Assembly (NCBI GenBank): GCA_964577675.1
Contig: CAZNZQ010000001.1
Coordinates: 5,875-69,874, forward strand
Length of the DNA stretch: 64,000 nt
Direction: 5' to 3'
Origin: an uncultured Candidatus Saccharibacteria bacterium
GTDB taxonomy: Bacteria; Patescibacteriota; Minisyncoccia; Phycocordibacterales; UBA5272
The translations under genes were made by a program, and so were the position numbers. The notes beneath the pieces were generated by a model. The model did not search any database and was not told the origin of the DNA. It was given only the letters and a program-made list of their open reading frames with translations. Below are positions 774 through 27,756 of the stretch, piece by piece. The stretch's first letter is position 1. Each line of letters starts with the position of its first letter.

Positions 774-776
774 ACC

Positions 777-2738: not shown

Positions 2739-2746
2739 AAATAGCC

Positions 2747-3715: not shown

Positions 3716-3719
3716 CACT

Positions 3720-4587: not shown

Positions 4588-6279
4588 TTACTTCTTATCT
4601 ACGTGACTCCAAGCAAAATCTCTATCTCCGTGCACCTTCTTCCCTGGGTTGAGGATTCCATCTGGATCAAAAATAGCTTTTGTCTTCTCGAAAAGCTGGA
4701 TGACTTCTGGTGAGAACATTTTAGGTAGATATGATGTTCGTAACAACCCGTCATTGTGCTCTCCAGACATTGAGCCTCTGTACTCAAAAATGAGTGCATA
4801 TACCTCATCCATGAGCTGATGCAAGGCTTCTACTATCCCCTCTTTGTGAATATCAACGAGTGGAATAATATGAAAGTTAGCATCTCCCATGTGACCCGCT
4901 ACTGTATAAATAAGATCTTTGTACTCAGGTTTAGAAAAGATTGCCTCTAATCTTGGAAGAAACTCTGGGAGGTCGCTTGGGTGTACAACAATATCGTCTA
5001 TGGTCGGCGCTGTGCGGAACCCCTGCATGCGTGACCGGAGGAGCGCGAAGCTCTCTCTTCTGAATGTCCAATACTTCTTGGCTTGCTTCTCACTGGTTGT
5101 CTTTTTCATCGGAAGATGAAACTGCTTCATATCTTCATACGCCTTGGTGACTTTTTCATCTACCTCCTCTTCTGTATCTCCGGTGAATTCTGCCATAAGA
5201 ATAATTTTAGGCACCCCACCGGTGAGTACCATTATAAACTCTGGCAAGAACTGAAGTCCGAGGGTGAGCATATTCCCTCCCATGCGAAGAGCGATGTCTT
5301 TGAAGAACTTCATCGCTATCTTAAACGTATGGTCATCGTATGACTCCATTGTCTCTGGTTTATGTTCAAGTAACTTTACTATTATCTCCCCTAAGTGGAC
5401 GGTTGATGGTACGAACATCACCATCATTCTTGAGTGAAGTTTTGGCTTAACCCCCGTAAAGGTAACCGAAGAAACTGCAGCAAGTGTCCCTTGGCTTCCA
5501 GCAATCAGTTTAGAGAGATCGAACACACCAGTTTCTTTATCATAAACATTCCATAGGTAGTACCCGGAGGAATTCTTGGAGACAGTTGGTTTCTCTTTCA
5601 TTATTGTCTCGTAATTAGAGGTAATGAGATCGTACATCTCTTTGTGGATTCTTCCGCCTTCACTCTTTTCTGTCATTTTCTGCGCCAGTTCATCTTCACT
5701 AAAAGCATGAAGTACATCTCTTGCACCACTCGCATAAACAACATCTAGGGCTTGTATGTACTTTTCTGTCTTACCGTAGGTAAGTGTCTTTTCACCCCCA
5801 GAGTTATTGGAAACTATCCCTCCAATGGCTGCGAGCTCACGAGAGGCTGGGTAGCTCGGCATAAGCCAACCTTCTTTTAGTGTCTGCTTTTCAAAGTCGC
5901 GGTAGTAAACACCGGGCTCCGCGGAAGCGTAATCAGGTGTCACCTCAGTGACGTGATTCATATGGCGGGTCGTGTCTACCACGATTGAGGTCGAGAGAGG
6001 TCCTCCCGTCATACATGTTCCAGCAGCACGAAATGCCACACTAACATCTAATCCTTCTTTCTTTTTCTTAGTCACAAAGTCAAGAAGAATACTTATATCT
6101 TGGGCGTCTTTCGGATAAATAACCATCTCTGGTTTAACATAAAAGATGCTTGTGTCTCGTGCAACATGTTCTCTGTCAACATCAAGAAGCGATCCGTCTC
6201 CTTTAATAAGTACTGATAATTCTTTTGCTAATTCTTCGTAGTTGGGAGTTGTCATATAGTACCTTAGAGTGTAGCACAT
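4588..6279 (-). CDS. FAD-linked oxidase (GlcD / D-lactate dehydrogenase-like, FAD_binding_4 + C-terminal oxidase domain)
   Basis: 563 aa with AAIGGIVSNNSGGEKTLTYG typical of FAD_binding_4. The likely true start is MTTPNYEEL at 6255. Confidence 0.65.
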   Translation of the reverse strand: MCYTLRYYMTTPNYEELAKELSVLIKGDGSLLDVDREHVARDTSIFYVKPEMVIYPKDAQDISILLDFVTKKKKEGLDVSVAFRAAGTCMTGGPLSTSIVVDTTRHMNHVTEVTPDYASAEPGVYYRDFEKQTLKEGWLMPSYPASRELAAIGGIVSNNSGGEKTLTYGKTEKYIQALDVVYASGARDVLHAFSEDELAQKMTEKSEGGRIHKEMYDLITSNYETIMKEKPTVSKNSSGYYLWNVYDKETGVFDLSKLIAGSQGTLAAVSSVTFTGVKPKLHSRMMVMFVPSTVHLGEIIVKLLEHKPETMESYDDHTFKIAMKFFKDIALRMGGNMLTLGLQFLPEFIMVLTGGVPKIILMAEFTGDTEEEVDEKVTKAYEDMKQFHLPMKKTTSEKQAKKYWTFRRESFALLRSRMQGFRTAPTIDDIVVHPSDLPEFLPRLEAIFSKPEYKDLIYTVAGHMGDANFHIIPLVDIHKEGIVEALHQLMDEVYALIFEYRGSMSGEHNDGLLRTSYLPKMFSPEVIQLFEKTKAIFDPDGILNPGKKVHGDRDFAWSHVDKK

Positions 6280-6308: not shown

Positions 6309-8015
6309 CTATGCCGCTGCTTCTAGTTTCTTCTCTATCTCTTGTTCTATTATCTCCAGTCTTTTCTTAAATTTTTTGAGAATAGCCTGTTCTTCTTTTG
6401 TTAACTCTCTTTTACGTTCCGCTTTAACAAGGACATCGTGGAACTCTTCGACATCACGTCTTAGTGCAGCCACGTTAACCTCAAGAGTGTTCTCCACTTC
6501 TTTCAACTTTCTACGGACACCTCTTCTAAAACGATTAAATTGCACGAACGAATACCAGAGCGTCCCTAGTACAGCAAGGACAGCAATAATAATAATCAAG
6601 ATAACTGAGAGCCAGTTCATAACAAAGATACCGAAACGCACGAGCATCATTCTTTCTATTTCTATAACCCTAGTATCTGTATACTCACTTACTGCCCCAC
6701 GACTATCCAGAACCCTTGCTTTCATTTCATAAACACCAGAGGTTAGTTTGTCTCCCCACACCAAACTAAAAACACCTGACTCGTTAGATACTGCTTCTTT
6801 AGTAAACGTCTTACTATTCTTGTCTGTAAGCACCACCTCAACTGTTGACTGCGGGTATGTCGCCCCTACTATTTTAAACGTATTATCAAACTCAACTTTT
6901 CTTGTGTACTCGGTTATAACAGGAGGGGTGATGGCTTGTACTGTATAGTCTAACGAGACACTGCTACTGTTTCCTGCACCATCAATTGCGTTTACTATAA
7001 CTGTATGGTTGCCCGGGGTTTGTTTTGGAAGACGGTATAAGTTCGTAGCATCAATAGGATATTCTATCGCCTGCCCATTATCTATACTTACTGTGATTTT
7101 ACTAATCCCTGACCTAGCATCTTCTGCTTGCACCAAAAGATTTGGGGTTAAGTTGGTGGTGACACTTCCATCAGGGAAAGAAGCTTTTAAGGACTCTGGC
7201 GCTTGTGAGTCTATTTGAAACTTATACGTTGTTACAGAACCCCATCCGCTCCTGGTCTTAAACTGTACATGCATGTAGAAAACACCATCCTCATCTACGG
7301 TAAAAGAACGATTTGAGACTGGAGGGTCGTACACCTTGGTCGGCGTTTCTTTTTCATTCTCTCCATACAAAGTTCTTACCGCGGTGACACCATCAGGTAT
7401 CTTCCATTCAAATGTCGCGTCTCTTCTTGAATACCATTTGGTGCTGTCTTCGTGGGTGGGAGAGGTTATGACCGGCACGAAAGACTCTGTCTTAACTTCT
7501 GGAGCCTCGACTTCGTTAATATAAATAAGCGCAGCCCCTGTTGTCTTTAAAACATCAGTAGCGTTACCATCATTTGCAAGCACCGAACCTTCCTTAATCG
7601 ATAAGGTTACGTTCCCAGCCTGTTTTGCCTTAAACGTTACAGAAAGCACGTTACCCGTTGCTTTATTGAAACCTGGGTTAAGAGCGACCCCCTCTAATGA
7701 AACAGTTCCTTTATCGTTGGAGAAATTAGGCTCTTCTGCCCAGAGGGTTATAAAAGAGCTAGTCTTAGACGTGGAAGTTACCTCTAGTGCATCTTTTGGA
7801 AATGAGAGCAGCGCGGAGACAGCGTTAATAGCGTCGAGATTATTATTAACAATAATATCAACCTTAAATGTCTTCCCTACCGTTGTGGTAACTGAAGAAG
7901 GAGAAAGTACCAGGTTGGCAGCGAAAGCTCCATTTACTAAAAAAGTAAACGCACTAAAAAATATGAGAGTATTACGAATTTTTCTTAAAGTGCTTTTTTG
8001 AAAAAAAGTGAACAT
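6309..8015 (-). CDS. membrane-anchored surface protein with N-terminal cohesin-like domain
   Basis: The signal peptide is MFTFFQKSTLRKIRNTLIFFSAFTFLVNGAFA. A cohesin-like segment follows (TVGKTFKVDIIVNNNLDAINAVSALLSFPKDALEVTS), then Ig-like middle regions. The C-terminus has a TM helix (ILIIIIAVLAVLGTLWY) and a charged coiled-coil tail. The ORF-track start 8066 was replaced by the Met that gives a canonical signal peptide. Confidence 0.5.
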   Translation of the reverse strand: MFTFFQKSTLRKIRNTLIFFSAFTFLVNGAFAANLVLSPSSVTTTVGKTFKVDIIVNNNLDAINAVSALLSFPKDALEVTSTSKTSSFITLWAEEPNFSNDKGTVSLEGVALNPGFNKATGNVLSVTFKAKQAGNVTLSIKEGSVLANDGNATDVLKTTGAALIYINEVEAPEVKTESFVPVITSPTHEDSTKWYSRRDATFEWKIPDGVTAVRTLYGENEKETPTKVYDPPVSNRSFTVDEDGVFYMHVQFKTRSGWGSVTTYKFQIDSQAPESLKASFPDGSVTTNLTPNLLVQAEDARSGISKITVSIDNGQAIEYPIDATNLYRLPKQTPGNHTVIVNAIDGAGNSSSVSLDYTVQAITPPVITEYTRKVEFDNTFKIVGATYPQSTVEVVLTDKNSKTFTKEAVSNESGVFSLVWGDKLTSGVYEMKARVLDSRGAVSEYTDTRVIEIERMMLVRFGIFVMNWLSVILIIIIAVLAVLGTLWYSFVQFNRFRRGVRRKLKEVENTLEVNVAALRRDVEEFHDVLVKAERKRELTKEEQAILKKFKKRLEIIEQEIEKKLEAAA

Positions 8016-8955
8016 GGTTGTGAAGATACACAGAGAAGATATACAACAAACAAAGAAGTAGTACACCCTTAAGTATACGCGAGATTGTGTTGCTTAATTG
8101 TAAGTTTTCAACAGGAGCAATTGTTTTGAAAGCGTATGCGCCATTTGAGTACTCAACCTTCACCTGTGTAAACTTACTTCTATCTTGGTGGAACAAAATA
8201 TACGGTGTCGTTATTTTTTTCCAACGCCTGTCATCCTTATCAGTCACACTTGCTTCAGATGTTTCGATGAGGAAGATATTCTCTATGGCACTCTTAGGTT
8301 CGCCATCATATATTGTGAGGTACCATGCCCCCATATGAATAAGGTCACTCTTTTCAATTGAAGCCTTAAGACTATCTGGCTGTACTTGTTTCACCACCTT
8401 GCCAGGAAGGATAGCGTTCGAAATAAGGCTCGGTACAGATATACTTACATATTGAGGGGTAACAGGGAAAGGGGTAGCTCGCTCATCAAATGAATTAAGA
8501 GAGATATTATCTAAAGAGATGATGCCAATACCTTGTTGGATAGGAAGTAAGATAGCAGTGAAGATGGTTCCCGTGTTTTCTCCAGAATGGTATGCGCTCT
8601 TTACTCCACCGAAACCTCCAGCAAAAATACCCTCAAAGGTAATATGCTCCTTCCCGTCTAGGTATTCTCCTTGCCTCACATTTGGATAAATAAGCCAAGG
8701 AGAAACAACAGACTCATCGACAGAGATTGAGTGCAGTTTAAAAAGCTCTTTCGGGTAAGAGAGTTCTCCTGATATACCGCTCACAATGCCCCCCTCTGGG
8801 TCGAGCATCACTCGGACCATCACCGGGTCACTAGTATTACTAGCCCGCTCAGGCGCGACTATTTCTAGTCTTGCAGCAGAAACAGACATGCATGGCGTCA
8901 ACATGATCCAAATTGCTATGATGCTATTTCTCATATAGTTTCTTTTCATGTTCAT
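7972..8955 (-). CDS. secreted cohesin-like domain protein with C-terminal TM anchor
   Basis: It has a signal peptide and a cohesin-like segment (LEIVAPERASNTSDPVMVRVMLDPEGGIVSGISGELSYPKELFKLHSISV), and ends in a hydrophobic helix plus a basic tail. Confidence 0.4.
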   Translation of the reverse strand: MNMKRNYMRNSIIAIWIMLTPCMSVSAARLEIVAPERASNTSDPVMVRVMLDPEGGIVSGISGELSYPKELFKLHSISVDESVVSPWLIYPNVRQGEYLDGKEHITFEGIFAGGFGGVKSAYHSGENTGTIFTAILLPIQQGIGIISLDNISLNSFDERATPFPVTPQYVSISVPSLISNAILPGKVVKQVQPDSLKASIEKSDLIHMGAWYLTIYDGEPKSAIENIFLIETSEASVTDKDDRRWKKITTPYILFHQDRSKFTQVKVEYSNGAYAFKTIAPVENLQLSNTISRILKGVLLLCLLYIFSVYLHNHVHFFSKKHFKKNS

Positions 8956-8956
8956 T

Positions 8957-9916
8957 TTATCCCGTCCAACAATAAGCGAGAATGCTCAAGTCAGTCAAGT
9001 TTATTTGCCCGTCGACACTAAGATCTACCTTCGCAGGAAATCCGGTGCGCTTATACCAAAAGGCCATAATACTAAAGTCTAGCAGGTTAACCCTGTTGTC
9101 ATTATTTAAATCACACCTCCTGCGGAACCCGCTCAGTTCTGAAAGTTTTGCTCTTAGACGATTAGCATCACCAATCCTAAAATCTATTTCTTGAGAGTAT
9201 GCAGATAGATCATCTACAGTTATAGATCTTGCCTTGGCATAGTGATCTCCAAGCCCTCCTTCCTTTGAGTCAAATACGTACACCCATTTCCCTTCTGCAT
9301 TAGCTCTTACCTGCTTCAGCATCTCCTGTTCAAGCCCGAGCAAAAGACGGACTTCTGCCAAAGGAGCAGAACGTCCAGTAAATGTAACAGGGTCGCCGTA
9401 CTTTACTTCTATCTTATCTGATGTAATCGTAGGCGAAACAAAAATACCATCTATTACAGTCACGACACCATCTGTCACATAAACGCTAAACGTAAGGAGC
9501 TTAGAAGTGAGCCTTTCTACATCCTCTGCCCTAATACCGAAACTATACGTTCCTTGTGTTAAATTGCCAAGACGTATCTCAAATGTCCCGTTCGGAGCAG
9601 CTGGTGATTCTGCGACAATTGAGCCATTTTTTAGAAGAGAGACAACACTACCCGGGTACGCAACACCTCTAAAAATTGCAGCGTCTTTGGTAGTTACTAG
9701 ATTGAGAGGCCCAGGTGCGGGCGGAATCGGGGGGGTGTCTGGGTAGACCAAAGGTGACTGAGGCACAACCGCAGTCACCGTTATGTCTACATACAAAGGA
9801 TTCTGTGTCTGAGCAAAAACCACATCTCTAGCACCTAACAAAAGCACTATTACTGTTAGCGAAGAAAGTGCAGTTCTTATTGCTTTGCTGCAGCGCGAGC
9901 TTGCTCTATGATCCAT
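8957..9916 (-). CDS. secreted protein with C-terminal type-I dockerin domain
   Basis: It has a signal peptide (cleavage VFA-QT). The C-terminus carries two canonical Ca-binding dockerin repeats, DLNNDNRVNLLDFSIMAFWY and DLSVDGQINLTDLSILAYCW. Confidence 0.6.
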   Translation of the reverse strand: MDHRASSRCSKAIRTALSSLTVIVLLLGARDVVFAQTQNPLYVDITVTAVVPQSPLVYPDTPPIPPAPGPLNLVTTKDAAIFRGVAYPGSVVSLLKNGSIVAESPAAPNGTFEIRLGNLTQGTYSFGIRAEDVERLTSKLLTFSVYVTDGVVTVIDGIFVSPTITSDKIEVKYGDPVTFTGRSAPLAEVRLLLGLEQEMLKQVRANAEGKWVYVFDSKEGGLGDHYAKARSITVDDLSAYSQEIDFRIGDANRLRAKLSELSGFRRRCDLNNDNRVNLLDFSIMAFWYKRTGFPAKVDLSVDGQINLTDLSILAYCWTG

Positions 9917-10854
9917 TTGTTGTACTTCTTAACTAAGATGATAAGAAGAAGAATAACTATGAGCAAAATACCAATGACAACTGATAGGAGCTGCCAAGGA
10001 AACATAAAATACGTGACAGAGGCTCCTGCCTTTCCCTCTGCACCAAAAGATAGTTCAAGGTCTGCGGTATACATACCAACGGCTAAGTTACTCATTTGAT
10101 ATTTAACATGATCAAAGAAAGGCGCAGAAACCGCAGGGGCTTCTCCTTCACCATAACGAACATCGAAACGTCTCACACTGCCAGGAAGTACGTTACCTTC
10201 ATTCTGGTTTGCATTAATGCGTGCAGTTTCCATCCCGATACTGTTGCGAATGACAATATCTCCAGCTGGCTTAACACGATCATTACCTGCGTTATTAAAA
10301 CGATAAACGAAATCTACCGGAATACTGCTGAGAACTTTTTTATCTTCTTTGATTGTAAATGAGGAGAGCCCTCCTTCTTCTTTTATGTCACCTGTAACCT
10401 TGAGCAGTATAAGCATTCCAACCTTTGCTCCAACAGAAACCTGACCTCCGTCAGCGCTTGGTGGCACTGTAGAGAGGAAAACTGCAGCAAAGTGTCCACC
10501 AGCGTCAGCGTCTTGAGGGATAGTAACTGTATATGGAATAGTTATTCTCTCCCCTTTCTTAATAGTTACTTTGTCCGTAATAGTTATCCAAGAAGGCAGA
10601 CCGTCTGTTCCTGGTGTAAAGTTAGGTGTACCACTTTCACCTTGTGAGTCGAATGCTTCAACTGAGGTATACAGCACCTGGTCAGTATCTTGTTCATTAA
10701 TAACCAAGAAAGTTTTAGCTATTGACTCCCCCCTATCCCCGGTGAGCTCTTCTCTGGCCGGTGAAATAGTGAGCGCTGTAGCGACACCTAGAGAAAGTGC
10801 TAGCTGTAATGCTACTAGCCCTAGAATTTTTTTCGTGAAGTGATTAGATGACAT
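9877..10854 (-). CDS. cell-surface protein resembling DUF916/DUF3324 (CscA-like) with C-terminal TM anchor and Lys-rich tail
   Basis: 325 aa with a signal peptide, a ~280-aa ectodomain (GGHFAAVF motif), a C-terminal TM helix (VVIGILLIVILLLIILV) and a KKYNK tail. This is the architecture of WxL-cluster DUF916/DUF3324 proteins. The assignment rests on architecture and loose motif resemblance. Confidence 0.35.
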   Translation of the reverse strand: MSSNHFTKKILGLVALQLALSLGVATALTISPAREELTGDRGESIAKTFLVINEQDTDQVLYTSVEAFDSQGESGTPNFTPGTDGLPSWITITDKVTIKKGERITIPYTVTIPQDADAGGHFAAVFLSTVPPSADGGQVSVGAKVGMLILLKVTGDIKEEGGLSSFTIKEDKKVLSSIPVDFVYRFNNAGNDRVKPAGDIVIRNSIGMETARINANQNEGNVLPGSVRRFDVRYGEGEAPAVSAPFFDHVKYQMSNLAVGMYTADLELSFGAEGKAGASVTYFMFPWQLLSVVIGILLIVILLLIILVKKYNKWIIEQARAAAKQ

Positions 10855-10873
10855 TGGAGATTAGTTTAGATTT

Positions 10874-11965
10874 CTAGAAGTTTGCAGTAGCAACGTAAGT
10901 AAGGTTGGCTGCATATGTACCTGCTTCTGTGATAGCAGCGATGTTAGCGAGATAACGTAGAGAAATTGTCGATGTTGGAGTCGACCCTGTTCCTGATGCT
11001 AGTGATGACGGTGTTGAAGACGAAGCATCAAAGCCGTACGACGTAGCCGCTGAGTAAGTCGGATCTAGAGTGACGTTCGTGCCACCAGATTCGGTCGCAC
11101 GTAGTGCAAATTGTTCTGTTCCTGGTGTAGAAGATGCAGCTGTCCCGCCAACCGCTGTAATGGTATTGAGAGAGTTCTGTTGAGAAGTTAATGTATCTCC
11201 GCGCACAGTAACAGCGAAGCCGTATGGCGCATTCGTAGAAACAGCTAACGTATGCGCAATTGTATCTGTAGTATCTCCAGCTGTATTAGTCGATGAAGCG
11301 AATTTAGCAGCGCCAGACCCTAGGTTGCCGAAATAGATAGTAGTAGTAGAGATAGTGAAGGTGAGAGACTGTTGGACGGTGCCAGTCATAGACACTGTAT
11401 CATCTGAGATAATATAGGTGCTTATAGAGCCTGTATCGCCAAAGGTTCCTCCGATTGTTATTTCGTAGAGACCAGGTGTAGCAGGGTTAGTGATCTGCTG
11501 AGCGCCTGTCGCGCCGAAAGTAGCATTTGAGCCAATTTCTATCTGAACACACCTGTTCGCTGGAATAACAGCAGTGCCTGACGTGATAGTGATGGTCTGG
11601 GAAGCCTGAGCGGTTCCCCACGTCTGACCAGATGCTGCACCCGCTTGAAGTGCGGCATCCTGGAAACCAGAACACGTAGCTGAGGTGCTAGTTGCGAAAT
11701 CTAGATTGTTAACACTAAAAGTTCCCATTGCGTATCCGGCTGGGAATGTGATTTGAATGTTCTGTCCCGCACCCACACCAGTAGGAGTTACAAACTGAAT
11801 TGTATGGTTAGAAAGAGTGCTCACCTGAACCGAACTCTGAGTATTGGAAAGGCTAGTAAGAGAAGCAGCAAATGCGAGCTCTATGTGAACCAGAGAAGCT
11901 CCGACACCGATAGCCGCAACAGTAACGGCGCTTACAGCTTTCTTTATAAATGAATTTTTAAGCAT
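10874..11965 (-). CDS. secreted T/S/G/A-rich protein, paralog 1, with WxL-like C-terminal module
   Basis: 363 aa with a signal peptide. Its C-terminal ~170 aa are shared with 12108..13226 and 13275..16553 (QQSLTFTISTTTIYFGNLGSGAAKFASSTNTAGDTT...AGTYAANLTYVATANF). Confidence 0.5.
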   Translation of the reverse strand: MLKNSFIKKAVSAVTVAAIGVGASLVHIELAFAASLTSLSNTQSSVQVSTLSNHTIQFVTPTGVGAGQNIQITFPAGYAMGTFSVNNLDFATSTSATCSGFQDAALQAGAASGQTWGTAQASQTITITSGTAVIPANRCVQIEIGSNATFGATGAQQITNPATPGLYEITIGGTFGDTGSISTYIISDDTVSMTGTVQQSLTFTISTTTIYFGNLGSGAAKFASSTNTAGDTTDTIAHTLAVSTNAPYGFAVTVRGDTLTSQQNSLNTITAVGGTAASSTPGTEQFALRATESGGTNVTLDPTYSAATSYGFDASSSTPSSLASGTGSTPTSTISLRYLANIAAITEAGTYAANLTYVATANF

Positions 11966-12107
11966 ATCAATAATTAATTACTAAACTATCTTTTAAGAAT
12001 TTTTTATTCTTATTTTATCTAAGTGTACCATCTGCGTAGAATTTTCCATCGTTTTATGTGGAAAAGCTTGGAAAGTAATAGAAGTTACACACTCAAACAG
12101 CCCACAA

Positions 12108-13226
12108 TTAGTAGTTAGCAGTCGCCACATAGATAAGACTGGCTACGTAGGTACCAGCTTCAGTGGTACCAGCTATATTGGCCACATATCTGAGCGAATA
12201 GGTAGAAGTGTTCGTTGACCCGCTTCCTGTTGCTAGAGTTGCCGGGGTTGTGGATGAGGCATCAAACCCGTATGATGTTGCAGCAGAAAACGTAGCATCG
12301 ACAGTAGCGCCTGTTCCTCCTGATACGGTAGCCCTGATTCCGAACTGCTCAGTGGCAATAGTAGAGGAAGCAGCTGTTGCCCCCATGGCAGTAATAGTAT
12401 TGAGTGCACTTTGCTGAGAAGTAAGCGTATCTCCTCGTATTGTTATGTTGTACCCAGAAGGCGCGTTAGTTGATATAGCTAAAGTATGCGCAATTGTTTC
12501 TGTTGTATCTCCTGCAGTATTAGTTGATGAGGCAAACTTAGCTGCACCAGACCCTAGGTTACCAAAATAGATAGTAGTAGTAGAGATAGTGAAGGTGAGA
12601 GATTGTTGGACGGTCGCACTGACGATAACAGTATCGTTAGTGATAATATTCTGTGTAATTGTTCCATCGTCTGCTCCGGCTCTAATTGTGAGTGCATAAG
12701 AACCAGGAGATGCTGGGTTAGTTATCTGCGAGACCCCAGTTGCGCCTGACGTTGCATTGGCTCCGATCTGAACTTGTACACAACGGTTGGCTGGAATGGT
12801 GGCTGTACCAGAAGTAAGGTACACAGTTGCAGTTGCTTGTGTTACTCCCCATGTGTTTCCAGAAGCTGCACCAGACTGGATAGCTGCGTCTTGGAAAGTA
12901 ACACATGACGCTGAAGTACTAGTTGCCAGATCAAAGTTAGCTATTGCAAAAGTACCCGTTGCGTAACCAGAAGGAAAGGTGATGCTAATTCCCTGCCCCG
13001 CAGAAAGCCCTGTTGGTGTAACAAATTGAATTGTGTGATCAGACAGCGTACTTACTTTGAGTGAGCTTTGAGTGTCTGAGAGACTTGAGAGGGCTGCAGC
13101 ATGAGCTAGCTCAACATGCACAATAGAGACACCTAAAACGATTGAAATAATTGTGACAAACGAAAGCGTCCTATTTAAAAAGCTGCTACCAATCCGTATT
13201 CTGGAAAAAAGACTGCTGAGTACCAT
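12108..13226 (-). CDS. secreted T/S/G/A-rich protein, paralog 2, with WxL-like C-terminal module
   Basis: 372 aa, about 65-70% identical to paralog 1 over the full length, ending ...AGTYVASLIYVATANY. Confidence 0.5.
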   Translation of the reverse strand: MVLSSLFSRIRIGSSFLNRTLSFVTIISIVLGVSIVHVELAHAAALSSLSDTQSSLKVSTLSDHTIQFVTPTGLSAGQGISITFPSGYATGTFAIANFDLATSTSASCVTFQDAAIQSGAASGNTWGVTQATATVYLTSGTATIPANRCVQVQIGANATSGATGVSQITNPASPGSYALTIRAGADDGTITQNIITNDTVIVSATVQQSLTFTISTTTIYFGNLGSGAAKFASSTNTAGDTTETIAHTLAISTNAPSGYNITIRGDTLTSQQSALNTITAMGATAASSTIATEQFGIRATVSGGTGATVDATFSAATSYGFDASSTTPATLATGSGSTNTSTYSLRYVANIAGTTEAGTYVASLIYVATANY

Positions 13227-13274
13227 AGACCTTTATAGAATATCATAGAAGAAACTGCTTAGTAAGTGGGCTAC

Positions 13275-16200
13275 TTAAAAATTAGCCGTAGCTACATATA
13301 CTAGACTGGTACTGTAATCTGCGGGCGGAGTTGTAGCAGCTACATTAAGAAGATATCTAAGCGAAAAAGTGGTCGTCGCACTGTCGCCAACCGTAGAAGA
13401 AGCCACTTGCACCGCAGTAGATGTAGAAGCACCGAATGCGTAGAGAGCCGATGCGTAAGGAGAATTAACGCCACCAGAACCACCTGATGCTGTAGCTCGT
13501 ATACCGAACTGTTCAGTCCCTGGATTGGAAGTCGAGCTTGTGCCACCTAATCCAGCTATGGTCGTTGTCCCTGCTGAAAGACTTCCACCCTGGAGGGTGA
13601 TAGAATACCCGTTTGTAGCGCTTGTTAAGACAGAGACGGTGTGCGCCACGACTTCTGTGTTACTTCCGCCTGTACTTGTACTCGACGCATATCTCGCCTG
13701 CGCAGGAGAGGCTACACCAAAGTAAACGCTTGATGTTGATATGCTAAACGTAATCGCCTGCGAAGATGACGCACTACTGCGCTCCTCCCACTCTACGAGC
13801 AACCTGTACCGGACCAGGGCATCGCCGCGAGCCTGTTCGTTATAGAGAGCAAAACCTTCTCCTTCTTTGAGAATAAGTTCGTCTCCATAATAGATGTCAC
13901 TTTCATAGTTACCAAAGGGTTGGTTGACCACGCCCGGCACAGTAATACCAAGAAGTCGTGATTCGGCAGCCTGCGCAAGCGTTACCGTGACACCTGTGGT
14001 ACGTATATCTGATGTGGTCGTTGCCGTGCCTGAATGTTTTCTAGGGATACTCGTAGAAGCGACAGAAGTCCCAGCTGAGACTGCGCTTATTTTTCTAACG
14101 GCCGCTGAACCGTAGACTGGCGCAACCGCTGTACCACTACGATTAACCCTGATGCCTAACTTCTTCACCAAAAAGTTTTTACCTGAACCAGACGGGTTAA
14201 AGAATGACGTATAGACATACCCATTTGCAGTAGACTGATTGACTGGACCAGATGTGTACAGATACTCTCCTTGAGAAGATGGAGTTACAGATTCCTCGTC
14301 CCATTCAATAAGAACTTTTACCCTAAAATCAGCATCCCCAGCTGCAGTATCATGATAAAAACCAACACCTTCACCTGCTTGTAAAATTAAAGGTTCCTTA
14401 TTGCTAAATTCTATTTCTTTATACCCAGTATTGCCAGCTGCAGCACTGGCTACTGCCCCTGGTGTCTGTATCGCGAGAAGCTTAGAATCGGTTGTCCCGG
14501 AATATGTAGCCGTAACACCAGTTCGACGTATTTCTACAATACTATTTGCAGTTCCAGAATGTTTTTTAGGTATGTTTGCTGCAGTAATTTGTGTCCCTGC
14601 TGACGCAGCAGAGATACGCCGTAGCTGCATTGGAATATAGACCGCCGCTGCAGCAGTGTCTACTCTTATACTTACCCTCCTAATAATTGCAGTCTTACCA
14701 GAGCCAGCTGGGTTAAAAAATGTCGCATAGTTATATGAGGTCGCAGCACTTCCGTTAATAGGTCCTATATCTATAAGGTACTCTCCTTGGGATGTGGGCG
14801 CAGAAGCTTCTTCATCCCACTCGATCTGAATCTTTACATAATTATCAACATCCCCTGTTGCTAAGTTATAGAGCCCTATTCCTTCCCCTGGTTGTAGTAC
14901 TATCTTCTCATTCTCACCAAGAACAATTTCTCTCTCTCCTATGGTCTGCCCTACAGCACCTGGGGAGTTAACGGTTAGAAAGTTAGAGTCTGTTGTTCCG
15001 AAGTAAGTAGCAGTAATGGCAGAAGCACACGCAAGTCCACACCACCTCATTTCCATTACACTATTTGCTGTCCCGGTATGCTTCTTCGGTAGAGCACCAG
15101 CTGCTACGAGTGTACCCCCCGACGCTACGGTCATCCTCCTAAAAGCGTACCCAACATACACTGCGGTAGTATCTGCATTTATCTTCACCAAGAGCCTCTT
15201 AACAACCGCGGTCTTACCTGAACCAACTGGATTAAAGAACGAGTAGTGGGTTGTGTTAGCTGCGGGTGACGCTTCTACGCGTGATGACGCCCATATATAC
15301 TCGCCCTGCGACGAAGGCGTATTACTTGTATCAACTTCTTGCCACTCTATAATCATACGAACAATTTGATCGATGTCACCAGCCGTCTCTGAAATAAGGG
15401 CTATTCCTTCACCGGCCTGTAATATAAGTTTTTCATCACTCTCATGAAAGTCCATTTGTTGCCAGCCTATTGCCTGTCCTGTTGTGCCACATGGAGTAAC
15501 ATTACCGATACGCGCATCAATACCACCGGCAGTCGTAGTAGAGACAGTAACCCCTGTGCGCCTAAACTCCATTTTAGTATCAGTACCGCTTGTGTTTTTC
15601 TTTGGAATACTAGACGTAGCGATAGACGTCCCACCGGTTGCTGATGATGTTCTCTGCAAAATAATGTTATTGGTATAGATGGCGGCTGCGTCACATGTCT
15701 CTGTCCCGAACCAAACACGCTTCACAACTGCTGTCTTACCGGACGCAGATGGGTTAAAAAAGGAATTGTAAGTGTACCCTGCGGTTGCCGCCACTTCAAC
15801 ACGAGGAAAAGCAAAGAGAAACTCGTTTTGCGGAGAAGGAGCATTCACTGTTTCCTCCCACTCTATAAGTACACGGACGCGAGCTGTAACTGTGCCAGCA
15901 GCTTCTTGATAAACTGCGACACCTTCCCCTGGCTGAACCACAATTCGCTCATCACTTTCCCCAAACGTAATATCACGCCCTGGGTAATACGCTCCAACAG
16001 CACCAGAAAGAGGTCGCCCTAAAATTCTGGAATCTGTTGTTCCTGAAAGAGACACTGTAGGGCCAGCTGTTCGAACCTCGATAACAGAATCAGTTGAACT
16101 AGAGTTTTTATCTACATAATCTGTCGCTATAATTTGCGTACCAGCTGAGGATGTAGAAATCCTGCGCAAGCTTAAGTTAACATAGTTTGAAGCAGTAGAG

Positions 16201-16553
16201 GAGGCGGTGTTTGCTCGTATGGCCACTCTCTTAATAGAAGCAGTACGCCCAGAAGCAGATGGGTTAAAAAAAGCTACATATACATAGTTCGCCCCAGTGG
16301 AACCGTTCACAGGCCCGATATCTAACATATATTCTCTTTCTCCTGGGTTTAGTGCAGCCTGTGCCTTGGGCACTGAAAAGTAATTATCAACAACATTTTT
16401 GTTAAGCGAAGCTAAGTAGAGTTTGTCCACTATTTGAGAATTTTTATGCTCTTTTACTATATATTGAGAAGCGTAAAAAAGAGCCACTGGATCAAAACCA
16501 GAGAAGAACAGGTATACAATAAGAAAGAGTGAGAATATTTTCTTAATCAGCAT
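13275..16553 (-). CDS. giant secreted paralog: 5 tandem ~165-aa repeats plus the shared WxL-like C-terminal module
   Basis: 1092 aa. It has five internal repeats, each containing FFNP[SA][GA]SGKTA[VI][VI]KRV and ES/NDE[KR][LI][IV]LQ[AP]GEG[IV][AG] and ending in IEW[EQD]E. The last ~195 aa are homologous to the two smaller paralogs (...SLVYVATANF). Confidence 0.55.
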   Translation of the reverse strand: MLIKKIFSLFLIVYLFFSGFDPVALFYASQYIVKEHKNSQIVDKLYLASLNKNVVDNYFSVPKAQAALNPGEREYMLDIGPVNGSTGANYVYVAFFNPSASGRTASIKRVAIRANTASSTASNYVNLSLRRISTSSAGTQIIATDYVDKNSSSTDSVIEVRTAGPTVSLSGTTDSRILGRPLSGAVGAYYPGRDITFGESDERIVVQPGEGVAVYQEAAGTVTARVRVLIEWEETVNAPSPQNEFLFAFPRVEVAATAGYTYNSFFNPSASGKTAVVKRVWFGTETCDAAAIYTNNIILQRTSSATGGTSIATSSIPKKNTSGTDTKMEFRRTGVTVSTTTAGGIDARIGNVTPCGTTGQAIGWQQMDFHESDEKLILQAGEGIALISETAGDIDQIVRMIIEWQEVDTSNTPSSQGEYIWASSRVEASPAANTTHYSFFNPVGSGKTAVVKRLLVKINADTTAVYVGYAFRRMTVASGGTLVAAGALPKKHTGTANSVMEMRWCGLACASAITATYFGTTDSNFLTVNSPGAVGQTIGEREIVLGENEKIVLQPGEGIGLYNLATGDVDNYVKIQIEWDEEASAPTSQGEYLIDIGPINGSAATSYNYATFFNPAGSGKTAIIRRVSIRVDTAAAAVYIPMQLRRISAASAGTQITAANIPKKHSGTANSIVEIRRTGVTATYSGTTDSKLLAIQTPGAVASAAAGNTGYKEIEFSNKEPLILQAGEGVGFYHDTAAGDADFRVKVLIEWDEESVTPSSQGEYLYTSGPVNQSTANGYVYTSFFNPSGSGKNFLVKKLGIRVNRSGTAVAPVYGSAAVRKISAVSAGTSVASTSIPRKHSGTATTTSDIRTTGVTVTLAQAAESRLLGITVPGVVNQPFGNYESDIYYGDELILKEGEGFALYNEQARGDALVRYRLLVEWEERSSASSSQAITFSISTSSVYFGVASPAQARYASSTSTGGSNTEVVAHTVSVLTSATNGYSITLQGGSLSAGTTTIAGLGGTSSTSNPGTEQFGIRATASGGSGGVNSPYASALYAFGASTSTAVQVASSTVGDSATTTFSLRYLLNVAATTPPADYSTSLVYVATANF

Positions 16554-17532
16554 AACTTATATAAGAATAGACATCTTCGCTAATTTCTTTGAAAATCTCC
16601 TTAATTGCAAATTGATTAAGTTCTCCTGGCTTATTTTGTGCTATCATCACAGTTAGTATGTACGGCCTCCCCGGCACATAAACAATCCCAGAGTCCGCCA
16701 TGACCTTCTCGTCTATCCTGATACCAGTCTTGTGTACGAAAGCTATGTCACTAGGTAACCCAAGAGAAAGATATTCTTTTGGCGCTCGACTCAAGATATC
16801 CAAAAATAACTTAGAGTTCTCGTGTGTAAAGTATGTTGAGTTATAAAGAGATCTAAAAAAGATAGAGTAACGCTTCGCGGTGATTCTGTTGTCTACATCT
16901 GAGTCTTTTTTATTATCGCGTTTAAGTGTATCTATAACGTCGTCCATTCCAAGGTGAACAAACACCTCTTCGAGCTCTTCCCCTTCTAAGTTGCGAAGAA
17001 GGATGAAGTGGGCGGTGTTGTCAGAGTTAATTAACGACTCTTCCAAAAGTCGCTTAATCGACATAGATGTACCTGTTGGAAGTTTATACATTTCACCAAA
17101 CTCACTATCTTTATCTTGATCCAAGATGACGAGCTCGTTATGTAACTTCCACTTCCCTTCCTCCACCTTTTTTAGTGCTGCCATGGCAACAGGTATCTTG
17201 ATGAGACTGGCTGGCCATATCTTCTCATCTTTATTAACAGCAATGTTAGCCCCTGTAGGTAAATACTCAAAATAAATTGATATCGTATAATCCCCTTTCC
17301 CTTCATACCCCTGCAGCTTCTCTCTCAATTCTTGAAAATCAACTATTAGATTCCTTTTGTCTAGGACAGCAAGCGACGGGTTAAGGTAACTAGAAACATC
17401 ATTTGCAGTAAAGCGGGCGTCGCCTCTAGTTAACAGGAGAATAAAAACTGTGCAAAGCAGTACTCCAATAATTACAACATATGCTTTGTTGGTATAAAAA
17501 TTGTGTAGAGCTTTTGTAATTATTTTTTTCAT
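16543..17532 (-). CDS. class A beta-lactamase-fold serine hydrolase (beta-lactamase/transpeptidase-like) with N-terminal TM
   Basis: 329 aa. All three class-A motifs are present in the right order and spacing: S-x-x-K (ASLIK), SDN (INSDNTA) and KTG (HKTGI). Confidence 0.55.
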   Translation of the reverse strand: MKKIITKALHNFYTNKAYVVIIGVLLCTVFILLLTRGDARFTANDVSSYLNPSLAVLDKRNLIVDFQELREKLQGYEGKGDYTISIYFEYLPTGANIAVNKDEKIWPASLIKIPVAMAALKKVEEGKWKLHNELVILDQDKDSEFGEMYKLPTGTSMSIKRLLEESLINSDNTAHFILLRNLEGEELEEVFVHLGMDDVIDTLKRDNKKDSDVDNRITAKRYSIFFRSLYNSTYFTHENSKLFLDILSRAPKEYLSLGLPSDIAFVHKTGIRIDEKVMADSGIVYVPGRPYILTVMIAQNKPGELNQFAIKEIFKEISEDVYSYISYAD

Positions 17533-17537
17533 ATATA

Positions 17538-20057
17538 TTATTCTTCGGTTGTAGTTGCGGTAACCGGCAAGTTGAGGCTGCTGATAGTATCTTTATCTAG
17601 AATACTATCTAGTTCAAACTTTCGCCTAAGAGCTTCTGATAGGCTGCCGTCATCGTCAGAGAATACCTCTCCTGTTTGTTCACTATAAAATGCAAAGTCC
17701 TGCGCTCCAACTATAACTTCCCATCGAACACCGTCAAAGACAACACGGCCTCTTTCTCCAATTGATGTGTCATGTGCCGGAACCTCTCTCACTTGAATAG
17801 ATTTGTCGGTCAAATTAAAAGCATACACTCTTGACCTATCTTCAGAGAGCCAAAATAAGTGCGTATCCTTAATTCCAATCTGCATATTTTTATCTATTGT
17901 AATAGATGTTGAGGATCCAGCTTCTATCTTATACTCCCCTCCATTCTGGAGATCATACAACCACAACTCTTCCTTGCCATCTTTCTCCACCTGAACAATG
18001 ACAGCATTAAGGAGTGCGCCTCTAATTCTTTTAATCAAGTCTTTTGCAAAATCAGGCAAGCGATCCTCTTTCGTTTCTTCTGTCTTATCTTCCTTCTCTT
18101 CTTTTTTTATTTCTTGGACGATTTCGCGAGGAGAAAGTAAGGACCATGATTCTTTCTTCTCCAGCTTAAACCACTTATTCTTCGGTGTAACTGGAATGAT
18201 CACTGTGCTGCTTGTTGCAGTAGAAGTAGCTGTGATATCTGTACTCGCGGCAACTGAGCTTGTAGCTACTTCTGTCGTTGAAGTTGCGGTTACTAACGAG
18301 GATACCTCTTCTGTGGAGGTAGCCAAACTATTAGTTGTTGTCGCTACAGTTGTACTTGCGATATCTAAGGTACTGGTTGCTTGCGACACCTCTTCCTCAA
18401 GATACATATACCATATCTCTTCTTCATTGGTTTCGTTATTGATAATAGTTACTAGTCGCACACCATCAATCATCTCATCGTTAAGTATCGTATCTCTCGT
18501 AAAGTCTGGATGAGTATACTCTAGAGTAGAATCGTAAAGCACTTCTACCTTAACTGCATCGAGATATGTCACAGGCGTCTCACGTTCTAGGCTTTTAACA
18601 GTTACTTTTACTTGTAGCTGAGTCATATCTGCCCAGGTAGACGAGGCAGAAAGCGGGATTTCGAATGTTCTATATTTCATAGAGATCTCGTTGAGTTCAC
18701 CAAGAGAAGTCCAAGTAACTCCATCGAATGTGTACAGTATTTCTAAGAAGTTATTCTGTGACTCTTCTGGCGCTTGAGACAATAGCTCAGATGATGTTGA
18801 AACCATTTCTGTGGTTGATGCTAGACTTGAACTAGCTATAGAGAAGAGGTCGTCTGTGGAGGAAGCCGTTGTTGTGGCTGACAAAGAAACAATACTAGAG
18901 GTAGAGTTCTCCGGTGAAGCTTGTGACGAAGTGGATACAACCAAGGAGAGACCTTCGTCTGCCGTTTGAGTTACAGGCGTAGCTGTTTGTTCCTCTGTTC
19001 CTGGCTCGTCTATCTCTTGCGTCTCACTAGAGATTGAAGTAGTAAAAGATTCTTCGGGTGTAATGGCTACGAGCGGAGCCTCTTCCTCCATAGCCTGAAC
19101 AGGAGTGGCTACCTCCTCACTGCTCTCCTGCGCGAAAACAGTGGTAATAAAAAGTGAACCGATTCCCTGAAGAAGGTCCCGCATAAAAGATGTAGGGGCT
19201 TCAGGTGGTACTGAACTATCTCCTGCGGGCGTGACCTCTGCAGGGATTGACACTTCTTGGGATGCTGGCATGGTTTCTATCACAGGCGGTGGCACTACTA
19301 CCGTGTCTGTAACACTCTCAGACGGTGAGTTGTTAAAAATATTCCCCAGCGTTTCAGTTACCGCTCCTACAATAATCTCCGCGAATGATTGATTATCGTT
19401 TACTGATTGTGTGGTCGAAGCCTCAAGTGCCTCATTGGCAGTTTGAACAGGCGGAGATGAGGAGGCGGATGTTGAAGTTGACACAGTCTCTGTAGAGGAA
19501 GCTGAGAGTAATTCTTCAGAAGTTGAGGATGTTATCAGGGTTGTACTTGCGACAGCATTTATTACCTCAGTTGTTGTAGCTAGTTCACCAATAGTAATTT
19601 CTTCTTTATTAGTTATCGCAAGAGAAACAATTATCTTCTTAGGGACAGTTGCGTCATTAAATGTACCGTCGAAATTACCGCAATAGATATCAGCTGCTGT
19701 ATTCTTGTCTAGAATGGCTGAGTTCTTGTCGTTAAATTGTGAAGGGTCTGCATTAGATGTTGTCTCTCCTTCTTTCTCTGCATTACGAGGGTTGCTCCAA
19801 CCACCTAAACACGTCTCTGGATAAAAAGTTACAATATCAGCCTTACCACGTGGTGAGATAAAGCTGCCAACCACAAGAACAAGGACAAGCGAAGACAGTG
19901 CCATCATCATGTGCTTCTTCTGAAGAGCTCTATCGACTTGCTCTGAATACGAGAAGACCAAGTCATTCAGCGACTTGCTAACATTGTCGATATGAGACCC
20001 GACTTCGGGAAAATTCTTAGAAATGATTCTTGGTTTTCTTAGTTGGAATTTGCCCAT
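17538..20057 (-). CDS. single-pass membrane protein with very long S/T/A/E-rich low-complexity ectodomain
   Basis: 839 aa with an N-terminal TM (MMMALSSLVLVLVVGSF) and several hundred residues of S/T-rich low complexity. It has no recognisable catalytic motifs. Confidence 0.5.
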   Translation of the reverse strand: MGKFQLRKPRIISKNFPEVGSHIDNVSKSLNDLVFSYSEQVDRALQKKHMMMALSSLVLVLVVGSFISPRGKADIVTFYPETCLGGWSNPRNAEKEGETTSNADPSQFNDKNSAILDKNTAADIYCGNFDGTFNDATVPKKIIVSLAITNKEEITIGELATTTEVINAVASTTLITSSTSEELLSASSTETVSTSTSASSSPPVQTANEALEASTTQSVNDNQSFAEIIVGAVTETLGNIFNNSPSESVTDTVVVPPPVIETMPASQEVSIPAEVTPAGDSSVPPEAPTSFMRDLLQGIGSLFITTVFAQESSEEVATPVQAMEEEAPLVAITPEESFTTSISSETQEIDEPGTEEQTATPVTQTADEGLSLVVSTSSQASPENSTSSIVSLSATTTASSTDDLFSIASSSLASTTEMVSTSSELLSQAPEESQNNFLEILYTFDGVTWTSLGELNEISMKYRTFEIPLSASSTWADMTQLQVKVTVKSLERETPVTYLDAVKVEVLYDSTLEYTHPDFTRDTILNDEMIDGVRLVTIINNETNEEEIWYMYLEEEVSQATSTLDIASTTVATTTNSLATSTEEVSSLVTATSTTEVATSSVAASTDITATSTATSSTVIIPVTPKNKWFKLEKKESWSLLSPREIVQEIKKEEKEDKTEETKEDRLPDFAKDLIKRIRGALLNAVIVQVEKDGKEELWLYDLQNGGEYKIEAGSSTSITIDKNMQIGIKDTHLFWLSEDRSRVYAFNLTDKSIQVREVPAHDTSIGERGRVVFDGVRWEVIVGAQDFAFYSEQTGEVFSDDDGSLSEALRRKFELDSILDKDTISSLNLPVTATTTEE

Positions 20058-20130
20058 AGTACTTCTTTAGTATAGCAACGAAAAGTACTTAAAAATGAAG
20101 GGCAATCCACACAAAAGACTTTTACTACTT

Positions 20131-20232: not shown

Positions 20233-20262
20233 CTTGGTTTCCTTTCTCGAAAGATTTGACTT

Positions 20263-20292: not shown

Positions 20293-20528
20293 CAAAAACG
20301 GGGTCAGGCATCGTTTTAGAACCTGACTCAACTTGGCTGCGATGTAAGGTCTAGTACGTACTGTGTACGTGTGTGTAAGGGGATTTGGGCTAGTTCGAAT
20401 CTCAAACCCTAAGGGGTTTAGGTCGTTATTTACAGTTTATGAAATACCGTATTTGCTGTGATTTTACTGTGATTTCCGTTAATGAATCTGATATTAAAAA
20501 AGCCACAAGTTTTGTATACTTGTGGCAT

Positions 20529-20936
20529 ATGGCAAACCCAGGATCTCTTAAACCTTTCAAGAAAGGTCATGACCCAAGACGTAATGTTAAAGGGAGAATT
20601 TCTAAACCTCTATCTGAGTCTGGAGCTTTGAAAAAGTATCTTCTAAAGCACCTACATAAGAAAGTTACTGTTAATGGTGTACAAATGAGGATGATGGATC
20701 TCGTAGCGGAAAGACTCGTTGATGATGCTGTCAGAGGTAGTATTTCAGCATTAAAAATATTACTTGATAGAACAGAGGGTAAAGTAATGACACAAGCCCA
20801 GATGGCAAAAGTACGAGATAAAGAAGAACGAAAGTTGTCAGCAGCAGAAGACAAAGAGATGCTTCGAGTTATGAGACTTTTTGCAACCGAAGAAGAATTA
20901 AAGAAACTGGACGCTCAGGACTCGACCAAATCCTAA
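20529..20936 (+). CDS. phage-associated protein with DUF5681-like N-terminus
   Basis: MANPGSLKPFKKGHDPRRNVKGRISKP resembles the FKKGQSGNPxGRPKG motif of DUF5681 phage proteins. The start was chosen at the internal Met of ORF 20439..20936. Confidence 0.35.
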   Translation: MANPGSLKPFKKGHDPRRNVKGRISKPLSESGALKKYLLKHLHKKVTVNGVQMRMMDLVAERLVDDAVRGSISALKILLDRTEGKVMTQAQMAKVRDKEERKLSAAEDKEMLRVMRLFATEEELKKLDAQDSTKS

Positions 20937-21422: not shown

Positions 21423-21564
21423 TGTGTGATAGGCCTTATAAAGTGTGGTAGCAAAAATCCCACCACGTGGTGAGGTCTTGCGACCTCCATACCCGTTTCC
21501 AGGTACGGCCTATCACAGCAAAATCCACATGATGGGGTTTTTACTGTGATAGGACATTGTTCGC
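21423..21564. promoter_or_regulatory. palindrome-rich divergent control region (operator-like TGTGATAGG repeats)
   Basis: GTGTGATAGGCC at 21423, the inverse GGCCTATCACAG at 21509 and CTGTGATAGG at 21553; the last two form a 10-bp-stem inverted repeat around a 25-nt spacer. A perfect 12-bp palindrome CACCACGTGGTG sits at 21458, with GAGGTCttgcGACCTC next to it. Confidence 0.45.
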
Positions 21565-21710
21565 CATGCCGCTGATTACTCAAATGGTTTAGGCTACTTG
21601 TATTGATTTGTAAGAACATTATACCTCGTTTTTGAGGTCTTTGGTACTATAGCTTACTAATAAAATTTTGTGTAGAGAAATTATTTTATAATTAGTTTGT
21701 ATTTTTTACA

Positions 21711-25491: not shown

Positions 25492-25585
25492 TACTCTAAT
25501 AAGTATACACCAAAACGGGTGCCTAAATTTTAGGCTCTCCACAGGTGGAGATTTTGAACAAATTAGAATAGTATTGTTTCAAAAG

Positions 25586-27714: not shown

Positions 27715-27756
27715 AATTAATATTTTGTGGCTCACTACCTCGTTCCTGCCCTTAAT

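Follow-up and report, generated by a model that had tools for sequence, protein, structure and literature searches.

The window analysed here is a stretch of 64,000 nucleotides from contig CAZNZQ010000001.1, and it holds a cluster of minus-strand surface-protein genes which is probably a Pam-type pilus cassette of a Parcubacteria-like bacterium of the Candidate Phyla Radiation (CPR), with subunits that would be joined by donor-strand exchange and no usher. The three pilin-like proteins of the cluster (p1092, p372 and p363) belong to a curated Pam pilin family, the membrane-anchored p325 has the fold of a chaperone and a remote relationship to WxLIP, the gene order recurs in related metagenome loci, and a short strand motif recurs in the pilin linkers, in a loop of p325 and at the N-terminus of a further protein, p319. 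Members of the CPR, or Patescibacteria, are mostly thought to live attached to host cells, and to our knowledge the way in which they attach is largely unknown.

Pilin-like proteins and their family

The preliminary description of this DNA had reported three secreted proteins with a common C-terminal module lacking Trp, and both the open reading frames (ORFs) and the identities among the proteins were confirmed (Table 1). The proteins p363 and p372 were 70% identical over their full length, and the last ~167 residues of p1092 were 46% identical to the C-terminus of p363, with 66 invariant columns; judged by sequence, the similarity of the modules is far beyond chance. The C-terminal ends are AGTYAANLTYVATANF in p363, AGTYVASLIYVATANY in p372 and PADYSTSLVYVATANF in p1092. 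A shared ending G-T-Y-x3-L-x-Y-V-A-T-A-N-[FY] had been given for all three, but its 'G-T-Y' is found in two of the paralogs and not in p1092. An earlier block reads QQSLTFTISTTTIYFGNLG in p363 and p372 and QAITFSISTSSVYFGVAS in p1092. The summed content of Thr, Ser, Gly and Ala was 53%, 54% and 42% in the three paralogs. The single Trp of p363 (W116) and that of p372 lie in the N-terminal domain, outside the Trp-free module of ~165 residues.

A profile of the three window modules, which the preliminary description had recommended building, matched 711 clusters (50% identity) at E≤1e-3 among 1.84 billion representative proteins. In the best 150 of these 711 clusters the module was at the extreme C-terminus in every case (protein length 92-3243 aa), and its final residue was aromatic in 148 of 149 (Phe 127, Tyr 21, other 1), which suggests that the free end of the C-terminal strand matters for assembly or recognition. 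The module had been thought to be previously unrecognised; it is, however, the C-terminal domain of Pam pilus pilins, already curated as NCBIfam NF058581 ("Pam pilus system pilin subunit"). Against a curated cutoff of 55 bits, p363 scored 67.2, p372 69.5 and p1092 56.9, and the same model was matched by 82 of 82 diverse smaller relatives (best 2e-26). Pfam gave no match for p1092, p372, p363 or p325.

The Pam pilus was described in Candidatus Mycosynbacter amalyticus, which belongs to the Saccharimonadia (Troman et al., bioRxiv 10.64898/2026.03.03.709456). Its pilins consist of an N-terminal beta-sandwich and a single linker strand, which is donated to the truncated immunoglobulin-like (Ig-like) C-terminal domain of the neighbour, and their polymerisation by donor-strand exchange was seen by cryo-electron microscopy (cryo-EM). 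The chaperones PamC and PamD are similar to PapD/FimC with a retained C-terminal membrane helix, there is no usher, and the operon also codes for a tip of one domain (PamT) and for PamR, an RbmA-like anchor that has a strand at its N-terminus and a membrane helix at its C-terminus (same preprint).

The two-domain plan with a linker was found in the AlphaFold model of p363 (mean predicted local distance difference test, pLDDT, 90.5), in which a signal peptide precedes two confident beta-rich domains, an N-terminal beta-sandwich (residues 37-186) and the C-terminal domain, joined by a linker where the confidence dips to ~68. The linker strand is VSMTGTV (residues 191-197), and C98 and C139, both within the N-terminal sandwich, are invariant in the family. 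The 70% identical p372 also has an N-terminal beta-sandwich, and VIVSATV is found at residues 200-206 of its linker. When the full two-domain model of p363 was compared with the PDB by Foldseek, only generic double-Ig matches were obtained (template modelling score about 0.2). The plan was not found in p1092, where a signal peptide and five tandem repeats of ~172 residues are followed by a Pam-type C-terminal domain with no linker strand before it. The repeats are 37-46% identical to each other and share the anchors FFNP[SVA]xSGK ... GEG ... EW[EQD]E; sequence and profile searches found no Pfam or PDB relative for them, and they constitute an undescribed repeat module in a candidate adhesin.

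The chaperone-like protein p325 and its relationship to WxLIP

p325 has a signal peptide, two beta-sandwich domains (residues ~27-172 and ~173-285) and a Lys-rich tail. Its AlphaFold model (pLDDT 83.6) contains the two sandwiches and a long C-terminal helix (residues 287-324, with the protein end LVKKYNKWIIEQARAAAKQ), the first part of which is the membrane helix; as modelled, this is the plan of PamC and PamD, i.e., a PapD/FimC-like chaperone with a C-terminal membrane helix. The signal peptide, C-terminal transmembrane helix and Lys-rich tail had all been noted previously, but the gene had been placed upstream of the three paralogs. Because all the genes are on the minus strand, p325 is in fact the last of the four and lies downstream.

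A likeness of p325 to DUF916/DUF3324 proteins had also been proposed, and profile-profile probabilities of 85-96% agreed with it. As a WxL/WxLIP reference, 68 Firmicutes loci were fetched via the DUF916 motif NQIDKxxxYFDLK and the alignments were checked against Pfam, which confirmed 57 of 57 WxLIP and 71 of 72 WxL sequences; the p325 profile was diversified with 55 relatives from the metagenome scan. A low-diversity profile (effective number of sequences about 2) gave 72% for domain 1 against DUF916, and such profiles understated the match, the signal rising with diversity. The trimmed ectodomain, without signal peptide and membrane helix, matched WxLIP with 84.9% over 206 columns (E 6.4e-6), and the untrimmed diversified profile matched the verified WxLIP profile with 96.4% (E 1.2e-9). 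Domain 1 reached 90.1% against DUF916 and domain 2 only 14% against DUF3324, with cross-domain controls below 1%. Among 26 family profiles built from all fetched loci, WxLIP was the sole non-self match of p325 (score 62; others ≤18.6). PF06030 (DUF916) was weakly matched by 30 of 56 members of the p325 family at E≤10 (best 3e-5), far below the true WxLIPs, which scored 1e-40 to 1e-55 against PF06030/PF11797; a side match to fn3_5 was common to both groups. The window p325 had no Pfam match at E≤1 and so fell below the thresholds of PF06030 and PF11797, and no PF11797 match was reported for its relatives. The profile comparisons and the model support p325 as a remote homologue of WxLIP, with a common fold of two Ig-like domains and a membrane helix.

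A disordered hairpin of WxLIP was predicted to become a strand that completes the incomplete sandwich of WxL (Hassan, Chaudhuri and Williamson 2023, PMC10599100), which would be strand complementation of the chaperone type. The equivalent loop of p325 (about residues 129-145) is both the most conserved and the least confidently modelled stretch of the protein. No secondary structure was modelled there, pLDDT was <50 at residues 135-141, and the loop holds the most conserved stretch of the family, VSVGAKVGML, of which VSVGAKV is residues 139-145.

The module itself had been taken for a WxL-like domain without Trp, and here the profile comparison gave a divided answer. In the maximum-accuracy alignment the module profile (190 sequences) was collinear with WxL over 140 columns through three blocks, and the two WxL families were its top two non-self matches among 25 other families. 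However, the HH comparison of the module with WxL gave a score of 22, P 0.0076 and a probability of 5%, none of 82 module members matched PF13731 (WxL) at E≤10, and the module has no Trp-x-Leu motifs. WxL proteins scanned against NCBIfam had no match to the Pam models, and HMMER and hhalign put the middle blocks in different registers; the -glob mode of hhalign gave meaningless end-to-end alignments. Real-versus-reversed scoring of the Pam module with the WxL hidden Markov model (HMM) gave medians of 4.0 and 0.8 bits, but this signal was discounted, since the comparison intended as a negative control (module HMM against WxLIP) gave a positive signal too and no significance was reached in the reciprocal test. 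A relation between the module and the WxL domain is, on these comparisons, unproven.

Gene order in related loci

Eighty metagenome loci were found through the p325 family, and the 43 with at least 3 kb of upstream sequence were used for the upstream analysis. The order was the same in all 43: a tip-like gene without a linker came first, one to three pilin genes with a linker followed, and the chaperone-like gene was the last of these, with two (31 loci), three (10) or four (2) same-strand module-bearing genes directly upstream of it. The gene adjoining the chaperone-like gene codes for a pilin of ~358 aa with a linker before the C-terminal domain in 40 of the 43 loci. The first gene carries a linker in none of them, and its product is either about 330 aa or 494-1935 aa long. 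The layout of a WxL cluster, with one WxLIP gene and at least two genes, short and long, sharing a module, is matched here, two to four module-bearing genes being found in 43/43.

The cluster had been delimited as 9877-16553, and these coordinates proved exact, but it continues through three more conserved genes at 6309..9916. Homologues of p319, p327 and p585 were found downstream in 35, 30 and 34 of 36 loci, respectively, a degree of conservation equal to that of the pilus genes. The upstream genes p839 and the beta-lactamase-like gene were found in only 7/26 and 6/26 loci, all of them close relatives. Both are present in a 70%-identical relative (L069), in which all nine genes are arranged in the same way. 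Close relatives (63-70% identity) carry the labels Candidatus Parcubacteria and Candidatus Pacebacteria; one 56%-identical relative is on a contig labelled Polynucleobacter sp., which is taken to be misbinned.

Strand motif and dockerin/cohesin genes

The start of the p319 gene overlaps the end of p325 by 40 nt. The protein has a signal peptide, the N-terminal strand ITVTAVV, a Pro-rich linker, Ig-like domains and a C-terminal dockerin, with Pfam matches to Big_6 and Dockerin_1 (23.6 bits against a cutoff of 22.9) and E~0.03 against PDB dockerins; its relatives match Dockerin_1 (26 members, best 2.2e-8) and Big_6. In many homologues of p319 (loci L104, L133, L101, L100, L126, L130, L112, L139, L143, L103 and L129) the N-terminal strand is separated from a poly-Gly linker by a Cys-rich insert, GCGDGxIGxGEQCDGSNLGGxSC...SACTFNTSxC, whereas the window p319 has the Pro-rich linker instead.

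p327 and p585 share their N-terminal ~140 aa (E 4e-5), and their relatives match Cohesin PF00963 (10 members, best 1.3e-6) and Big_13. p585 has Big_13 Ig domains (4.2e-9), a membrane helix and a charged cytoplasmic tail. The GTG start listed for its 585-aa ORF overlaps the previous gene by 95 nt, and the real start is probably the Met at 8015, which gives 568 aa; the L069 orthologue has 569 aa. On the basis of these family matches p327 is a candidate receptor for the p319 dockerin.

A similar short strand was found in three kinds of protein. The columns of the pilin linkers are V/I (83%), x, V/I/L (68%), S/T, A/G (78%), x and V/A/I (77%), and those of the mature N-terminus of p319-like proteins, where a Gly- or Pro-rich linker follows, are V/I (98%), x, I/V (100%), T/S, A (100%), x and V (97%). 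The regular expression [VI].[VIL][STG]A.[VI] was matched by 32 of 39 p319-like N-termini, 56 of 142 pilin linkers and 16 of 56 p325 loops, against a background of 3.9e-4 per residue. Its only occurrences in the window were in p372, p325 and p319, with the variant VSMTGTV in p363; it was absent from p1092, p327, p585, p839 and the beta-lactamase-like protein. That linker, chaperone loop and p319 N-terminus have the motif in common suggests a donor-strand assembly capped by a dockerin/cohesin anchor.

Table 1. Positions of the genes and features discussed, in coordinates of the window
Feature	Position	Strand	Length or residues	Description
Sugar-metabolism block	309..4541	plus		GH57 fragment, GH15 glucoamylase-like, bacterial-type phosphoglucose isomerase, ROK kinase
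FAD-linked oxidase	4588..6279	minus		next after the sugar block
p585	6309..8066	minus		second membrane-anchored protein, cohesin-like N-terminal domain
p327	7972..8955	minus		membrane-anchored, cohesin-like N-terminal domain, C-terminal membrane helix
p319	8957..9916	minus		candidate terminator/adaptor with C-terminal dockerin
p319 dockerin	8978..9112	minus	residues 269-313	
p319 N-terminal strand	9764..9790	minus	residues 45-51	ITVTAVV
p325	9877..10854	minus	325 aa	membrane-anchored, chaperone-like, WxLIP-like and PapD-like
p325 membrane helix	9928..9996	minus	residues 287-309	
p325 hairpin loop	10420..10470	minus	about 129-145	
p363	10874..11965	minus	363 aa	candidate two-domain shaft pilin; ORF confirmed
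p363 C-terminal domain	10877..11365	minus	residues 201-363	
p363 linker	11366..11413	minus	residues 187-200	
p372	12108..13226	minus	372 aa	candidate two-domain shaft pilin; ORF confirmed
p372 C-terminal domain	12111..12602	minus		
p372 linker	12603..12647	minus	residues ~194-208	
p1092	13275..16553	minus	1092 aa	candidate tip adhesin; ORF confirmed
p1092 C-terminal domain	13278..13766	minus	residues ~930-1092	Pam-type
p1092 repeats	13770..16352	minus	residues 68-928	five tandem repeats
p839 and class-A beta-lactamase-like	16543..20057	minus		upstream, outside the conserved core
Beta-lactamase-like	16543..17532	minus		PF13354
p839	17538..20057	minus	839 aa	
DUF5681 gene	20439..20936			
LOOT RNA	21472..21595			83.5 bits
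Large serine recombinase	22462..23751			
C-5 cytosine DNA methyltransferase	24499..25542			
tRNA-Gln	27644..27715			end of low-GC stretch

Proposed assembly and alternative explanations

The assembly that we infer, with its binding steps, their order and the parts played by tip, terminator and anchor, is as follows. All the proteins would be exported by Sec. p325, held by its C-terminal helix, would fill the open groove in the incomplete Ig-like C-terminal domain of each new subunit with its VSVGAKV strand, in the manner of PapD/FimC or WxLIP. p1092, which has an acceptor domain and no donor linker, would start the fibre and form its tip, its five repeats serving as an adhesin. p372 and p363 would then be added in turn, with the linker strand (V-x-V-x-A/G-x-V) of each incoming subunit displacing the chaperone strand in the previous one. 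p319, which has the motif at its mature N-terminus and no acceptor domain, would cap the cell-proximal end, and its dockerin would tie the fibre to the cohesin-like p327 and p585, so that p319 and p327/p585 would between them be the functional analogue, in split form, of PamR. Polymerisation by donor-strand exchange into what would be a helical filament is supported indirectly, by the pattern of the linkers and by the shared motif.

Several points weigh against this interpretation. The fibre proposed here is deduced from genes and single-protein models, and the likeness to Pam comes from family models and the description in the preprint, not from sequences or structures of PamA-E, PamR or PamT, none of which was matched in the PDB searches. 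When the PDB was searched by sequence and by profile for relatives of the pilins, p325, p319, p327, p585 and the p1092 repeats, no significant match was obtained apart from the weak ones to dockerins. The accessory set differs from that of the described Pam operon. The best window score against the PamT equivalog model NF058579 (cutoff 240 bits) was 31.9, and no single-domain tip pilin consisting of the module alone was found among the window proteins, the first gene being that of the 1092-aa protein. A PamR-like protein was not identified; p319, p327 and p585 had no NCBIfam Pam match, and p319 has a conserved N-terminal strand, but its C-terminus is a dockerin and not a membrane helix. The strand motif is short, its residues are ones common in beta-strands, its strict form is found in only 29-39% of chaperone loops and pilin linkers, and p363 carries a variant only. 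The cohesin identity was derived from 10 weak-to-moderate Pfam matches in relatives, not in the window proteins. Finally, the related loci were selected via the p325 family, and the co-occurrence figures are conditional on that gene.

The preliminary description had suggested a WxL-like system of non-covalent display. In WxL-type display without polymerisation, p325 would hold each module-bearing protein singly by strand complementation. In structure and sequence WxLIP is indeed a closer match to p325 than is any chaperone of the chaperone-usher kind, the chaperone-like gene is the only one present, and the cluster mirrors WxL clusters in having one WxLIP-like gene together with short and long module-bearing proteins. 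However, the module belongs to the Pam pilin family, members of which polymerise in cryo-EM structures, and a fibre is therefore more likely. Display would also not explain why an extra linker strand is found near the chaperone-like gene and never in the first gene, or why the strand motif is also at the N-terminus of p319. We consider display without polymerisation rather unlikely.

It was also considered that the module could be a generic C-terminal anchor or sorting domain of the envelope (S-layer or cell-wall), its neighbours being unrelated surface proteins. The module is always at the extreme C-terminus, nearly always ends in Phe or Tyr, and follows diverse N-terminal regions in proteins of up to 3243 aa, as would be expected of such a domain, but the synteny with the chaperone-like gene in 43/43 loci, the assignment to Pam pilins, the Ig-like two-domain model with a linker, and a set of nine cassette proteins in which no sortase, peptidase or other sorting enzyme was identified make this improbable. 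A classical chaperone-usher pilus acquired from a diderm bacterium is extremely improbable. No usher and no PapD_N or fimbrial Pfam match was found in the nine cassette proteins or their relatives, and no PapD family (PF00345/PF02753) was among the 25 families listed of the 69 matched by 56 p325 relatives. Moreover, the chaperone-like protein has a membrane anchor, the strand that would be donated lies internally and not in an N-terminal extension, and the sources of close relatives are named as CPR only, apart from the single Polynucleobacter sp. contig. A Pam-type cassette is thus retained as the probable interpretation.

Neighbouring genes

The start of p1092 lies in an 11-nt overlap with the beta-lactamase-like gene (PF13354, 2.5e-40), which is itself preceded by p839, coding for an acidic, Ser/Thr-rich protein with no family match. 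Both are probably co-transcribed with the cluster in this window, and it may be guessed that they remodel the wall to let the fibre pass. Promoter and terminator scans gave no more sites than were found in shuffled sequence.

On the other side, the surface cluster adjoins the plus-strand sugar-metabolism block, and the same order was found in the 70%-identical relative. From about 20000 to 27715 the GC content is low (0.36 against ~0.43); this stretch ends at the tRNA-Gln and, with its recombinase, methyltransferase, DUF5681 gene and LOOT RNA (Table 1), looks like an integrated mobile element.

Comparison with known systems

The Pam pilus is a known kind of system, and what is different here is the accessory set and the lineage. 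In common with Pam of M. amalyticus, the pilin C-terminal family is matched above the cutoff, the pilins have the plan of two domains and a linker with paired Cys in the N-terminal domain, every component has a signal peptide, and the chaperone-like protein combines two beta-sandwiches with a membrane helix at its C-terminus, with no usher and in a CPR host. On the other hand, the relatives are labelled Parcubacteria or Pacebacteria, lineages not named in the text of the preprint; one chaperone-like gene is present instead of PamC and PamD; the first gene codes for 1092 aa with five repeats, with no single-domain tip of the PamT type; a dockerin protein and two cohesin-like membrane proteins are found instead of an RbmA-like PamR; and the neighbours examined included no ATP synthase genes. 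The results would widen the range of the Pam pilus by a Parcubacteria-like lineage in which the accessory set is different, and they offer a concrete, testable model of assembly and anchoring, i.e., chaperone strand, pilin linker, capping strand and dockerin/cohesin anchor. The tip genes of related loci vary widely (about 330-1935 aa), and other members of the family reach 3243 aa.

Chaperone-usher pili (Pap, Fim, CFA/I, Csu) are similar in their incomplete Ig-like subunits, two-domain chaperone, donor-strand logic and tip subunit without a donor strand, and the motif, with its alternating hydrophobic residues and, at the fourth position, a small one, is also alike; this small residue may be compared to the Gly of chaperone-usher N-terminal extensions. 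They differ in that here there is no usher or outer membrane, the chaperone-like protein has a membrane anchor, an internal linker would serve as the donor strand, and no sequence similarity to PapD or fimbrial families was detectable.

The WxL/WxLIP (DUF916-DUF3324; csc) clusters (Siezen 2006; Hassan, Chaudhuri and Williamson 2023, PMC10599100; PDB 9i1y, 9i25) share with this cluster a two-Ig-domain protein with a C-terminal membrane helix and a disordered hairpin loop, of which p325 is a remote homologue, and the logic of one such protein with at least two others that have a C-terminal module in common, one of which has a large extension at its N-terminus; in both, binding is predicted to occur by a strand completing an incomplete sandwich. 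In contrast, the module here has no Trp and no PF13731 match, the pilins are extended by an N-terminal domain and a linker strand, the host belongs to the CPR and not to the Firmicutes, and WxL proteins were described as peptidoglycan-bound monomers, not fibres. The evidence says that the DUF916/WxL and chaperone-usher-like interpretations are not mutually exclusive alternatives. The WxLIP link and the dockerin/cohesin module are not described in the literature searched; no paper there linked WxL to donor strands, and the text of the Pam preprint (bioRxiv 10.64898/2026.03.03.709456) does not mention WxL, DUF916 or Parcubacteria. The homology to WxLIP ties a long-puzzling surface system of Firmicutes, the mechanism of which is still debated, to donor-strand biology.

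It is possible, though we would not call it probable, that the Pam pili of CPR and the WxL/WxLIP clusters of Firmicutes are two branches of one ancient usher-less system of monoderm type, in which a membrane-anchored PapD-like protein completes, and in CPR also polymerises, subunits with incomplete Ig-like C-terminal domains. The WxL domain would then be the Trp-bearing counterpart of the Pam C-terminal domain, the Parcubacteria fibre would have as its cap a protein whose donor strand is N-terminal and would be tied to the membrane via a dockerin-cohesin pair, and WxL proteins might also form short donor-strand-linked assemblies.

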